A stretch of 31,776 nt of DNA from Escherichia coli (GTDB lineage Bacteria > Pseudomonadota > Gammaproteobacteria > Enterobacterales > Enterobacteriaceae): the NCBI RefSeq assembly GCF_003334355.1, contig NZ_QOWP01000037.1. One strand, written 5' to 3'. The notes below the pieces were generated by a model, which was not told the DNA's origin, made no database searches, and saw nothing but the letters and a program-made list of their open reading frames with translations. The translations under genes were made by a program, and so were the position numbers. Of this stretch, positions 14,624-25,606 are shown piece by piece; position 1 is the first letter of the stretch; each line of letters begins with the position of its first letter.

Positions 14624-15871
14624 ATGAAAGGTAGTTATAAATCCCGTTGGGTAATCGTAATCGTGGTGGTTATCGCCGCCATCGCCGCATTCTGGTTCTG
14701 GCAAGGCCGCAATGACTCCCGGAGTGCAGCCCCAGGGGCGACGAAACAAGCGCAGCAATCGCCAGCGGGTGGTCGACGTGGTATGCGTTCCGGCCCATTA
14801 GCCCCGGTTCAGGCGGCGACCGCCGTAGAACAGGCAGTTCCGCGTTACCTCACCGGGCTTGGCACCATTACCGCCGCTAATACCGTTACGGTGCGCAGCC
14901 GCGTGGACGGCCAACTGATAGCGTTACATTTCCAGGAAGGCCAGCAGGTCAAAGCAGGCGATTTACTGGCAGAAATTGACCCCAGCCAGTTCAAAGTTGC
15001 ATTAGCACAAGCCCAGGGCCAACTGGCAAAAGATAAAGCCACGCTTGCCAACGCCCGCCGTGACCTGGCGCGTTATCAACAACTGGCAAAAACCAATCTC
15101 GTTTCCCGCCAGGAACTGGATGCCCAACAGGCGCTGGTCAGTGAAACCGAAGGCACCATTAAGGCTGATGAAGCAAGCGTTGCCAGCGCGCAGCTGCAAC
15201 TCGACTGGAGCCGGATTACCGCACCAGTCGATGGTCGCGTTGGTCTCAAGCAGGTTGATGTTGGTAACCAAATCTCCAGTGGTGATACCACCGGAATTGT
15301 GGTGATCACCCAGACGCATCCTATCGATTTAGTCTTTACCCTGCCGGAAAGCGATATCGCTACTGTAGTGCAGGCGCAAAAAGCCGGAAAACCGCTGGTG
15401 GTAGAAGCCTGGGATCGCACCAATTCGAAGAAATTAAGTGAAGGCACGCTGTTAAGCCTCAATAACCAAATCGATGCCACAACCGGTACGATTAAAGTGA
15501 AAGCACGCTTTAATAATCAGGATGATGCGCTGTTTCCCAATCAGTTTGTTAACGCGCGCATGTTAGTCGACACCGAACAAAACGCCGTAGTGATCCCAAC
15601 AGCCGCCCTGCAAATGGGCAATGAAGGCCATTTTGTCTGGGTGCTGAATAGCGAAAACAAGGTCAGCAAACATCTGGTGACGCCGGGCATTCAGGACAGT
15701 CAGAAAGTGGTGATCCGTGCAGGTATTTCTGCGGGCGATCGCGTGGTGACAGACGGCATTGATCGCCTGACCGAAGGGGCGAAAGTGGAAGTGGTGGAAG
15801 CCCAGAGCGCCACAACTTCGGAAGAGAAAGCCACCAGCCGCGAATACGCGAAAAAAGGAGCACGCTCCTGA
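14624..15871 (+). CDS. mdtA: RND efflux membrane-fusion (periplasmic adaptor) protein MdtA
   Basis: Track ORF starts at 14477, but the start at 14624 ([26 protein letters not shown]...) gives 415 aa with an N-terminal membrane anchor; the stop overlaps the mdtB start (ATGA-type). Confidence 0.9.
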
Positions 15872-18800
15872 TGCAGGTGCTACCCCCGAGCAGCACAGGC
15901 GGCCCGTCGCGCCTGTTTATTATGCGTCCTGTGGCCACCACGCTGCTGATGGTGGCGATCTTACTCGCCGGGATTATCGGTTATCGCGCCCTGCCCGTTT
16001 CGGCGCTACCGAAAGTGGACTATCCGACCATTCAGGTGGTCACGCTCTACCCAGGTGCGAGCCCGGATGTCATGACCTCTGCCGTTACCGCGCCGCTCGA
16101 ACGCCAGTTCGGGCAGATGTCCGGCCTGAAACAGATGTCGTCGCAAAGTTCCGGCGGTGCGTCAGTTATCACTTTGCAGTTCCAGCTAACATTGCCGCTG
16201 GATGTCGCCGAGCAGGAAGTGCAGGCCGCGATTAATGCCGCCACTAACCTTTTGCCGAGCGATCTGCCTAACCCGCCGGTTTACAGCAAAGTGAACCCGG
16301 CAGATCCGCCGATCATGACGCTCGCCGTCACCTCAACCGCCATGCCGATGACGCAAGTGGAAGATATGGTGGAAACCCGCGTCGCGCAGAAAATCTCGCA
16401 GATTTCCGGCGTCGGCCTGGTGACGCTTTCCGGCGGTCAGCGTCCGGCTGTTCGCGTCAAACTTAACGCTCAGGCGATTGCCGCCCTCGGCCTGACCAGC
16501 GAAACCGTGCGCACCGCCATTACCGGCGCTAACGTTAACTCGGCAAAAGGTAGCCTCGACGGCCCTTCCCGTGCGGTCACGCTTTCCGCGAACGACCAGA
16601 TGCAATCCGCCGAAGAGTATCGCCAGCTAATCATCGCCTACCAGAACGGCGCGCCAATTCGTCTGGGCGATGTCGCAACTGTAGAGCAAGGTGCAGAAAA
16701 CAGCTGGCTCGGCGCGTGGGCGAACAAAGAACAGGCCATTGTGATGAATGTTCAGCGCCAGCCCGGTGCTAACATTATCTCCACCGCCGACAGCATTCGG
16801 CAGATGCTGCCACAGCTCACTGAGAGTCTGCCGAAATCGGTGAAGGTGACAGTGCTTTCCGATCGCACCACCAATATCCGCGCATCCGTCGATGATACTC
16901 AGTTTGAATTGATGATGGCTATCGCGCTGGTAGTCATGATTATCTACCTGTTTTTGCGCAATATTCCGGCGACCATCATTCCCGGTGTTGCTGTACCGCT
17001 GTCGTTAATCGGCACTTTCGCGGTTATGGTGTTTCTCGATTTTTCAATCAATAACCTGACGCTGATGGCGTTAACTATCGCCACCGGGTTCGTGGTCGAT
17101 GACGCCATCGTGGTGATCGAAAACATTTCCCGCTATATCGAAAAAGGCGAAAAACCGTTGGCGGCGGCGCTCAAGGGCGCAGGTGAAATCGGCTTTACCA
17201 TTATCTCGCTGACCTTCTCACTGATTGCGGTGTTGATCCCACTGCTGTTTATGGGCGATATCGTCGGGCGACTGTTCCGCGAATTTGCTATTACCCTGGC
17301 GGTAGCGATTTTGATCTCAGCGGTGGTGTCGCTGACCCTGACACCGATGATGTGCGCGCGGATGCTCAGCCAGGAGTCGTTGCGTAAACAGAACCGCTTC
17401 TCCCGTGCCTCGGAAAAAATGTTCGACAGGATAATCGCCGCCTATGGTCGTGGACTGGCGAAAGTGCTGAATCATCCGTGGCTGACCTTAAGCGTGGCAC
17501 TCAGCACGCTGCTGCTTAGCGTGCTGCTGTGGGTGTTCATTCCGAAAGGTTTCTTCCCGGTACAGGACAATGGCATTATTCAGGGCACTTTGCAGGCACC
17601 GCAATCCAGCTCCTTTGCCAATATGGCCCAGCGACAACGCCAGGTCGCGGACGTGATTTTGCAGGATCCGGCAGTGCAAAGCCTGACCTCATTTGTTGGC
17701 GTTGATGGCACTAACCCGTCGCTGAACAGTGCACGTTTACAAATCAACCTCAAACCGTTGGATGAACGTGATGATCGGGTGCAAAAAGTCATCGCCCGTC
17801 TGCAAACGGCGGTAGATAAAGTGCCGGGCGTCGATCTCTTCCTGCAACCAACGCAGGATCTGACTATTGATACTCAGGTCAGCCGCACCCAGTACCAGTT
17901 TACCTTGCAGGCCACGTCACTGGATGCGCTCAGTACCTGGGTGCCACAGTTGATGGAAAAACTCCAGCAACTGCCACAGCTTTCTGATGTCTCCAGCGAC
18001 TGGCAGGACAAAGGGCTGGTGGCGTATGTCAATGTTGATCGCGACAGCGCCAGCCGTCTGGGGATCAGCATGGCGGATGTCGATAACGCCCTGTACAACG
18101 CGTTTGGTCAGCGGCTGATTTCCACTATTTATACTCAGGCCAACCAGTATCGCGTGGTGCTGGAGCACAACACCGAAAATACCCCAGGGCTTGCGGCGCT
18201 AGATACCATTCGCCTGACCAGCAGCGACGGCGGCGTGGTGCCGTTAAGCTCAATTGCCAAAGTTGAACAGCGTTTTGCGCCGCTTTCCATCAACCATCTG
18301 GATCAGTTCCCGGTAACGACCATCTCTTTTAACGTGCCAGATAACTATTCGCTGGGCGATGCGGTGCAGGCGATTATGGACACCGAAAAGACGCTGAATC
18401 TGCCGGTGGATATCACCACGCAGTTCCAGGGCAGCACCCTCGCCTTCCAGTCGGCGCTGGGCAGCACTGTCTGGCTGATTGTCGCGGCGGTGGTGGCGAT
18501 GTATATCGTGCTCGGCATTCTGTACGAGAGCTTTATTCACCCGATCACCATTCTCTCGACGCTACCCACCGCAGGGGTTGGCGCACTGCTGGCGTTGCTG
18601 ATTGCTGGTAGCGAACTGGATGTGATTGCGATTATCGGCATTATTTTGCTGATCGGTATCGTGAAGAAGAACGCCATCATGATGATCGACTTCGCGCTGG
18701 CTGCCGAGCGCGAGCAAGGCATGTCGCCGCGCGAGGCAATCTACCAGGCTTGTCTGTTGCGTTTTCGTCCGATCCTGATGACCACCCTGGCGGCTCTGCT

Positions 18801-24887: not shown

Positions 24888-25606
24888 CCGAGTTACCAAT
24901 CGACGAAAACACACCGCGTATTTTGATCGTGGAAGATGAACCGAAGCTGGGGCAGTTGCTCATTGATTATCTGCGTGCTGCGAGCTATGCGCCGACGCTT
25001 ATCAGCCACGGCGATCAGGTACTGCCGTATGTGCGCCAGACACCACCGGATCTGATCCTGTTAGATCTGATGCTCCCTGGCACCGATGGCCTGACGCTGT
25101 GCCGGGAAATTCGTCGTTTTTCTGACATTCCGATCGTGATGGTGACGGCAAAAATCGAAGAGATCGATCGCCTGCTGGGGCTGGAGATTGGCGCAGATGA
25201 TTATATCTGTAAGCCGTACAGCCCACGGGAAGTGGTAGCGCGCGTCAAAACCATTTTGCGCCGTTGCAAACCGCAGCGCGAGTTGCAGCAACAGGATGCT
25301 GAAAGCCCGTTGATTATCGACGAAGGTCGTTTTCAGGCTTCATGGCGCGGTAAAATGCTTGACCTGACGCCTGCGGAATTTCGTCTGCTGAAAACGCTCT
25401 CTCACGAACCAGGAAAAGTGTTCTCCCGCGAGCAATTGCTCAATCATCTTTATGACGACTACCGCGTAGTAACCGACCGCACCATCGACAGCCACATTAA
25501 AAACCTGCGCCGCAAGCTGGAATCTCTCGACGCCGAACAGTCATTTATCCGCGCCGTTTATGGCGTCGGTTACCGCTGGGAAGCCGACGCCTGCCGCATC
25601 GTTTAG
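24884..25606 (+). CDS. baeR: OmpR-family response regulator BaeR
   Basis: 240-aa ORF with a receiver domain (ILIVEDE...[13 protein letters not shown]) and a winged-helix C-terminus; overlaps baeS by 4 nt. Confidence 0.9.

Follow-up and report, generated by a model that had tools for sequence, protein, structure and literature searches.

The closest described system is the mdtABCD-baeSR operon of Escherichia coli K-12 MG1655 (yegMNOB-baeSR, b2074-b2079), whose operon structure and autoregulation are both stated in the literature (PMC7657598, PMC3219618, PMC3160322). BaeR is listed among the positively autoregulated response regulators, acting on mdtABCD-baeSR (PMC3219618), and its autoregulation through this operon is textbook knowledge. 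The K-12 intergenic distances (-1, 0, 0, -4 and -4 nt, with +190 after baeR) have stood in a published table since 2023 (PMC10666635). According to the same source, 707 of 2,987 same-strand E. coli gene pairs (24%) lie at -8 to +6 nt, with -4 and -1 being the commonest distances, and reinitiation in native E. coli pairs, measured over -8 to +10 nt, falls steeply with distance. Reporter tests found four of five overlapping E. coli pairs to be coupled, bioBF being the one that was not, and reinitiation dropped by 60-90% or more in four of five tested pairs once the SD was removed (Huber et al. 2019).

We analysed a window of 31,776 nt from E. coli (RefSeq assembly GCF_003334355.1, contig NZ_QOWP01000037.1), in which positions 14624-25606 are the mdtABCD-baeSR operon, with mdtA, mdtB, mdtC, mdtD, baeS and baeR following one another on one strand. 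All six proteins exceeded the curated cut-offs of their NCBIfam models, five of which are equivalog models and one, that of MdtD, a subfamily model. The genes are as follows.

14624-15871, plus strand: mdtA, periplasmic adaptor of an RND pump (NF008589, 719 bits against a cut-off of 391; RefSeq)
15871-18993, plus strand: mdtB, RND permease subunit (NF007798, 2241 bits against 1584)
18994-22071, plus strand: mdtC, RND permease subunit with a GTG start (NF007905, 2210 bits against 1774)
22072-23487, plus strand: mdtD (iceT), MFS transporter (NF007799, 969 bits against 426)
23484-24887, plus strand: baeS, sensor histidine kinase (NF007837, 930 bits against 603)
24884-25606, plus strand: baeR, OmpR-family response regulator (NF007982, 450 bits against 380)

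The operon aligns to K-12 MG1655 without gaps at 99.59% identity, with 45 substitutions in its 10,983 nt. At each of the five downstream starts, and in the bases preceding it, the two strains are identical, and the sole start-proximal difference is one base, 9 nt into mdtB. RefSeq gives the genes the same coordinates in an annotated E. coli chromosome with 100% identity to window positions 15000-26500, and 5424 of 5426 complete E. coli genomes carry the operon. This is the canonical E. coli operon, with nothing new in it. Relative to strain PSS-12, the window carries an extra sib/ibs unit, and coordinates are offset by 335 nt upstream of about position 13900.

The first-pass annotation had described tight translational coupling from mdtA to baeR, on the basis of a 1-nt overlap, two abutments and two 4-nt overlaps, and both the sequence and the RefSeq coordinates bear out all five junctions. 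The A that ends the mdtA TGA (15869-15871) is also the first base of the mdtB ATG at 15871, forming TGATG; the TAA of mdtB (18991-18993) is followed without a gap by the mdtC GTG at 18994; the TAA of mdtC (22069-22071) abuts the mdtD ATG at 22072; and mdtD/baeS and baeS/baeR each overlap in an ATGA, at 23484-23487 and 24884-24887. The resulting distances (-1, 0, 0, -4 and -4 nt) are alike in the window and in K-12. Two points needed adjustment. The span given in the earlier description, 15871-25606, begins at the mdtA/mdtB junction; mdtA itself starts at 14624 and is preceded by a promoter region at about 14539-14606. That the junctions are tighter than chance is true only weakly, given the genome-wide frequency of pairs within -8 to +6 nt. 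The spacing of mdtABCD-baeSR is normal operon spacing. A gap of 190 nt separates baeR from yegP, and a search of this gap for a canonical intrinsic terminator found none. Elsewhere in the same window, yegL-pphC-yegI also show 4-nt overlaps.

Junction geometry of this kind could arise as an artefact of mis-assigned start codons, and two features of the locus lend themselves to this reading: a longer, GTG-started frame is possible for mdtA (from 14477), and mdtC itself starts with GTG. We regard it as scarcely credible. Across 12 Enterobacterales loci, conservation of MdtB, MdtC, MdtD, BaeS and BaeR for the most part sets in at the annotated first codon or within a few residues of it; the exceptions are MdtD, which is shorter in Yersinia artesiana and Acerihabitans, and BaeS, which starts three residues later in four loci. 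Citrobacter has an ATG at the position of the E. coli mdtC GTG, and the longer mdtA frame would enclose the BaeR box. The annotated starts, and with them the five distances, were retained.

Two features upstream of mdtA bear on control by BaeR.

14553-14570, plus strand: BaeR binding box TTTTTCTCCCTTATTGGC, 17 of 18 positions matching the consensus, 54-71 nt upstream of mdtA
14580-14606, plus strand: second BaeR ChIP-exo peak, the probable mdtA core promoter and transcript start region (K-12 peak 2153972-2153998, mapped by offset)

The box was scored against the consensus TTTTTCTCCATDATTGGC of Nishino 2005, in the form quoted in PMC3799227, and no other site in the window matches with two or fewer mismatches (0 expected in shuffled sequence). 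It is enclosed by a BaeR ChIP-exo peak at K-12 positions 2153931-2153967, corresponding to 14539-14575 in the window (PMC7657598 supplements), and one base separates the window from K-12 in the 150 nt that precede mdtA. TAGTAT at 14580-14585 is a candidate -10 element of mdtA, assigned from sequence rather than from a mapped start site. For CpxR, a search upstream of mdtA for the box GTAAA-N5-GTAAA returned only matches with three mismatches, which are uninformative.

Published expression data agree with this arrangement. In 5% ethanol, deletion of baeR changed transcript levels relative to wild type by log2 values of -4.0 for mdtA, -3.8 for mdtB, -3.6 for mdtC, -3.35 for iceT/mdtD and -4.6 for baeS (PMC7657598 supplements), that is, by near-equal 10- to 25-fold drops (PMC7657598). 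Because the pump genes and baeS fall alike, baeS mRNA follows the pump genes. The window has a BaeR box upstream and a run of genes from mdtA to baeR with neither a spacer nor an above-chance terminator, the layout of an autoregulated unit. The proposal that baeSR is embedded in its own target operon and closes a positive feedback loop is thus supported by the BaeR box, ChIP-exo and RNA-seq, and had already been published.

The loop would be only partly closed if internal promoters in mdtC, mdtD or baeS drove baeSR independently of the mdtA promoter. A RegulonDB-derived list places transcription-factor binding sites at mdtD and baeS besides mdtA, which leaves room for internal regulation; in plain LB, baeR deletion leaves the basal levels of all operon genes unchanged (PMC7657598 supplements); the 258-nt mdtC-mdtD spacer of Yersinia artesiana holds two promoter-like sites where 0.6 are expected; and baeSR of Erwinia is described as an operon of its own (PMC4107485). 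Against this, promoter-like matches inside the E. coli operon numbered 8 where shuffled sequences gave 8.1, and the baeS drop on baeR deletion under inducing conditions is as large as that of mdtA. Terminator-like matches inside the operon likewise did not exceed the shuffle expectation, giving no sign of elements that would decouple baeSR. A scan of synonymous-site conservation over 10-12 Enterobacterales orthologues per gene found no peak in any gene (maximum z of about 3 among hundreds of windows), with junction-adjacent windows being unremarkable. On this balance we consider independent internal promotion of baeSR unlikely, and a single promoter upstream of mdtA remains our preferred account. 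One candidate was considered individually and rejected: the promoter-like site at 24770-24797 on the plus strand, within baeS and upstream of baeR, is the only plus-strand promoter-like match inside the operon, but it falls in the conserved kinase motif LAICxNIVEAHxG and its hexamers are lost outside Escherichia.

The five ribosome-binding sites are unlike one another, and spacing by itself is no proof of coupling. Two of the sites lie in predicted hairpins.

15856-15869, plus strand: predicted 5-bp hairpin AGGAG-CACG-CUCCU containing the mdtB SD, ending just before TGATG
18978-19019, plus strand: predicted hairpin in which the mdtC SD GAGGAGG (18982-18988) pairs with mdtC codons 5-8 (GCCCUCUUC)

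The mdtB SD has a duplex energy of -7.9 kcal/mol, and a similar GGAGC...GCUCC arrangement occurs in several Enterobacteriaceae loci. The mdtC SD has a duplex energy of -12.0 kcal/mol, and its junction (81 nt) folds with an MFE of -27.3 kcal/mol (z = -2.7 against shuffles) and a mean unpaired probability of 0.18 over the SD region. Folding predictions for E. albertii and three Enterobacter loci also contain the mdtC hairpin; covariation across 11 sequences was not above shuffled or slid controls, with 71-122 of 500 shuffles reaching the observed values. Both arms of this hairpin are coding sequence. At mdtD, no SD is recognisable (best anti-SD duplex -3.0 kcal/mol), so de novo initiation there is unlikely; reinitiation may suffer there as well, given the effect of SD removal in four of the five tested pairs. 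The baeS start is preceded at 5 nt by AAGGAG (-7.9 kcal/mol), predicted to be mostly unpaired (0.75 over -15 to -4), and with an SD both good and open baeS could initiate on its own. For baeR, the SD (GAGAGAAG region) forms at best a weak duplex of -4.1 kcal/mol and lies in an A-rich stretch predicted to be unstructured, so baeR, too, could initiate independently.

These differences bear on whether the spacing means anything beyond ordinary compaction, with the genes, or at least baeS and baeR, initiating mainly on their own and the geometry carrying little regulatory meaning. Besides the predicted accessibility of the baeS and baeR starts, this alternative draws on the uncoupled bioBF overlap, on -4 and -1 being the commonest distances genome-wide, on tabulated distances of about -3 to -4 nt for COG pairs of kinase then regulator (744) and regulator then kinase (7,491) (PMC10666635 supplement), and on spacers of +7 to +24 nt between the same genes in relatives. 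The missing mdtD SD, the predicted sequestration of the mdtB and mdtC SDs, the four coupled pairs among five overlapping ones and the steep loss of coupling with distance argue the other way, and all five distances of the operon fall inside the -8 to +10 nt range over which reinitiation has been measured. We therefore give compaction with independent initiation a minority chance, though a better one than internal promotion, and favour downstream translation that depends at least in part on upstream translation. Our literature search found no direct test of translational coupling in mdtABCD-baeSR. Circumstantially, the response of a baeS deletion strain needed baeR to be supplied together with baeS (PMC4780735). 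We infer coupling, and its strength at each junction, from these features, and the earlier wording that the genes are 'co-translated' is best read in the same way.

Comparison with relatives separates the pump genes from what follows them. Most of about 70 Proteobacteria MdtABC loci have tight junctions (-4, -1 or 0) at mdtA/mdtB and mdtB/mdtC, the latter being -4 in 41, -1 in 7 and 0 in 6. The -1 geometry of mdtA/mdtB is kept in 11 of 12 Enterobacterales loci; for Brenneria the computed distance is -79, though the UGAUG context is present there as well. After mdtC, Escherichia, Citrobacter and Enterobacter have distances of 0 or -4 nt, and Yersinia, Brenneria and Acerihabitans have spacers of +67 to +258 nt (in Acerihabitans at the mdtC/mdtD junction), with the +7 to +24 nt spacers found at later junctions in Yersinia and Brenneria. 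These loose junctions imply that coupling of baeSR to the pump is not a conserved requirement. The Providencia and Yersinia aldovae loci lack mdtD, and Erwinia amylovora is described without it (PMC4107485). Among the loci sampled, only those of Enterobacterales have the regulator joined to the pump operon, and a regulator pair that follows the pump genes with no spacer is seen in Enterobacteriaceae rather than across all Enterobacterales.

We propose that mdtABCD-baeSR is very probably the canonical BaeR-autoregulated operon, transcribed as a six-cistron message on which downstream translation depends at least partly on upstream translation. Phosphorylated BaeR bound at 14553-14570 would activate one promoter upstream of mdtA, where CpxR is a published co-activator, giving a message of about 11 kb that would supply the MdtA adaptor, the MdtB2C RND pump, the MFS transporter MdtD/IceT, the sensor kinase BaeS and the regulator BaeR. 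Since baeS and baeR would lie on a BaeR-activated message, envelope stress would raise the sensing system itself. With no spacers between cistrons, terminating ribosomes would adjoin the next start, and downstream translation would most likely depend on upstream translation at least in part, either by termination-reinitiation or by the opening of the hairpins over the mdtB and mdtC ribosome-binding sites. Operon structure, BaeR box, autoregulation and exact distances are all in the literature, and the value of the present analysis is mostly confirmation.

A more specific reading, which we put forward as speculative and rather improbable, is that the junctions are non-equivalent, each setting its own protein ratio, and that the regulator became joined to the pump operon step by step in Enterobacteriaceae. 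If so, a masked strong SD and a GTG start might keep the MdtC level lower than that of MdtB, in line with the B2C pump; SD-less mdtD might be made only by reinitiation; and the open baeS SD might make the sensor partly independent of pump translation. The protein ratios of interest along the message are MdtB:MdtC, expected at 2:1, and BaeS:BaeR.

Set beside K-12 MG1655, the genes, their order and all five junctions are equal here; K-12 has two sib/ibs units upstream and the window strain three, and otherwise nothing of substance differs. MdtABC/MuxABC-type operons outside Enterobacterales share the order adaptor, permease B, permease C, mostly at -4 or -1, and a search of the same strand downstream of them, reaching up to 6 kb where the contig allowed, gave no homologue of baeS or baeR. 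The hyfHI, astDB, ydbH-ynbE and menDH pairs (Huber et al. 2019; PMC10666635) resemble the present junctions in their ATGA and TGATG overlaps, and some of the junctions here carry an SD in the upstream gene; coupling has been measured for those pairs, and mdtABCD-baeSR, for which it is predicted, has two abutments in place of overlaps and lacks an SD at mdtD. As subunits of one complex, MdtA, MdtB and MdtC belong to a class enriched among tight pairs (PMC10666635). In PhoBR, PhoPQ, CusRS, ZraSR and CpxRA, the regulator likewise activates its own promoter, usually through one dimeric site (PMC3219618); unlike those systems, baeS and baeR close a six-gene operon in which the effector pump is also encoded, with the kinase preceding the regulator.

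The mdtABCD-baeSR operon comprises six same-strand genes with zero spacers, as read from an ORF listing and directly from the sequence:

14624-15871, plus strand, mdtA
15871-18993, plus strand, mdtB; junction with mdtA TGATG, a 1-nt overlap
18994-22071, plus strand, mdtC, with a GTG start; mdtB stop TAA directly followed by GTG
22072-23487, plus strand, mdtD; mdtC stop TAA directly followed by ATG
23484-24887, plus strand, baeS; junction with mdtD ATGA
24884-25606, plus strand, baeR; junction with baeS ATGA

By both readings, all five junctions have the geometry described in the first-pass annotation. 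The span it gave, 15871-25606, holds for the junctions, but its left end is the mdtA/mdtB junction and the operon starts ~1.3 kb further upstream. Across 12 Enterobacterales loci the N-termini of MdtB, MdtC, MdtD, BaeS and BaeR show conservation, for the most part from annotated codon 1 onward, which rules out a start-codon artefact as the source of this geometry. RefSeq annotates the six genes at matching coordinates, 6/6 proteins exceed NCBIfam curated cut-offs, and the locus was found in 5424/5426 complete E. coli genomes. E. coli PSS-12 is 100% identical to window positions 15000-26500. K-12 MG1655 matches the 10,983-nt operon ungapped at 99.59% identity, so the K-12 literature is directly applicable; MG1655 agrees with the window at all five starts and in the bases preceding them, with a single difference 9 nt into mdtB.

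The proposal that baeSR is embedded in its own target operon, with positive feedback, is correct and long known, both the operon and BaeR autoregulation being given in several papers. Baranova and Nikaido reportedly termed yegMNOB-baeSR (mdtABCD-baeSR) a putative operon as early as 2002. At 14553-14570, a BaeR box, TTTTTCTCCCTTATTGGC, agrees with the published consensus at 17/18 positions; it is the sole match in the window, and a chance occurrence is not expected. K-12 BaeR ChIP-exo peaks at 2153931-2153967 and 2153972-2153998 (PMC7657598) correspond to window positions 14539-14575 and 14580-14606. In 5% ethanol, baeR deletion changed expression relative to wild type by log2 values of -4.0 (mdtA), -3.8 (mdtB), -3.6 (mdtC), -3.35 (iceT, that is, mdtD) and -4.6 (baeS), and in plain LB the operon genes showed no significant change (PMC7657598). 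These published RNA-seq data provide the operon-level check suggested at first pass and support the view that baeS and the pump genes are co-regulated.

Internal promoters or terminators could decouple baeSR from mdtABCD. Across 14000-26400, promoter-like matches (8 versus 8.1 in shuffles) and terminator-like matches (18 versus 14.3) were at shuffle level, and a scan of synonymous-site conservation found no internal peak in the operon genes. The sole plus-strand promoter-like site within the operon, 24770-24797, was rejected: it lies inside the conserved LAICxNIVEAHxG kinase motif, and its conservation ends at Escherichia. A hint of decoupling comes from a RegulonDB-derived list, in which mdtD and baeS are among the operon genes with transcription-factor binding sites. 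No canonical intrinsic terminator was found in the 190 nt 3' of baeR, and a constitutive yegP promoter has been reported within this baeR-yegP gap. The best promoter-like match of the region (22463-22490, minus strand, GTGACA-16-TATATT, 10/12) is antisense in the 5' part of mdtD, facing the mdtC/mdtD junction, with the overall match count at chance.

The five junctions differ from one another in Shine-Dalgarno (SD) sequence and predicted structure. At mdtB, a predicted 5-bp hairpin ending at TGATG encloses AAGGAG. mdtC has a strong GAGGAGG 4 nt 5' of its GTG, and pairing of this SD with codons 5-8 of the gene is predicted (81-nt fold, -27.3 kcal/mol, z = -2.7); this predicted hairpin recurs in close relatives, its covariation did not exceed controls, and both arms are within coding sequence. 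mdtD has no SD. For baeS, AAGGAG lies at a distance of 5 nt and is mostly unpaired by prediction, and the region around the weak baeR SD is unstructured. Among native E. coli pairs, coupling falls steeply with distance and occurs in 4/5 overlapping pairs; removing the SD usually lowers reinitiation by 60-90% or more, and bioBF overlaps without any coupling. Together, these junction differences and native-pair experiments make translational coupling likely for the starts of mdtB, mdtC and mdtD; for those of baeS and baeR it is uncertain. The coupling proposed at first pass would be a reasonable reading of the operon, with a strength that probably varies from junction to junction. Circumstantially, the response of a baeS deletion strain required baeR supplied along with baeS (PMC4780735).

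Around the mdtB start, CCUGAUGCAGG (15866-15878) forms a small palindrome with AUG in a 3-nt loop; its CCUGAUG part is invariant in 12/12 Enterobacterales loci, ~8/12 of which retain the complementary CAGG.

Between yegL and mdtA are three tandem Sib antitoxin RNA/Ibs toxin units with a period of ~327-335 nt:

13556-13704, 13891-14033 and 14218-14360, plus strand, Sib RNAs
13630-13686, 13962-14018 and 14289-14345, minus strand, ibs ORFs

K-12, PSS-12 and VL40 have two units here, and the peptide specified by the extra one, MKHVIILVILLVISFQAY, is divergent. Since three Ibs genes are annotated at this position in further complete E. coli genomes, the extra unit is a known copy-number variant. 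Downstream, similarity to PSS-12 stops at 27816, close to the small RNA CyaR (RyeE; 27720-27805, plus strand, Rfam 100.7 bits); PSS-12 continues with ogrK and P2-like tail genes, and the window is VL40-like, with yegR, yegS and gat genes. dgcE (yegE; 4283-7600, plus strand) is an intact 1105-aa frame; in the annotation of closely related PSS-12 the gene has an internal stop and is called a pseudogene.

Tight junctions here are beyond chance only in the sense of marking an operon. Distances from -8 to +6 nt account for 24% of same-strand pairs in E. coli (707/2,987), and the commonest distances are -4 and -1 (PMC10666635). The supplement of that paper already tabulates the K-12 distances (mdtA/mdtB -1, mdtB/mdtC 0, mdtC/mdtD 0, mdtD/baeS -4, baeS/baeR -4, baeR/yegP +190) and puts kinase/regulator COG pairs at about -3 to -4 nt in thousands of genomes. 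A second tight run in the window, yegL-pphC-yegI (10055-13409, minus strand), has a 4-nt overlap at both junctions:

12750-13409, minus strand, yegL
11992-12753, minus strand, pphC
10055 to ~11995, minus strand, yegI

An MdtC scan with one genome per species yielded 80 loci. The adaptor-B-C core occurs widely across Proteobacteria, and its junctions are tight (B/C distance -4 in 41 loci, -1 in 7 and 0 in 6). Only 12 loci, all Enterobacterales and including the E. coli reference, have baeS and baeR downstream on the same strand. mdtD is missing from the Providencia (L011) and Yersinia aldovae loci, and likewise from Erwinia (PMC4107485). Escherichia, Citrobacter, Enterobacter and Superficieibacter keep every junction within -4 to +1. 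Yersinia, Brenneria and Acerihabitans have a spacer of +67 to +258 nt 3' of mdtC (locus coordinates):

L007 9076-9333, Yersinia artesiana, 258 nt
L008 9091-9204, Brenneria
L010 9088-9154, Acerihabitans
L047 9076-9158, Y. aldovae

Two promoter-like sites on the plus strand (9135-9162 and 9201-9230) fall within the Y. artesiana spacer, versus 0.6 expected. Beyond the spacer, Yersinia and Brenneria have junctions of +7 to +24 nt, and Acerihabitans still has -1 and -4. Judged from these sequences, the looser arrangement after mdtC in the three genera indicates that spacer-free fusion of regulator and pump is a feature of Enterobacteriaceae and no requirement of the system.
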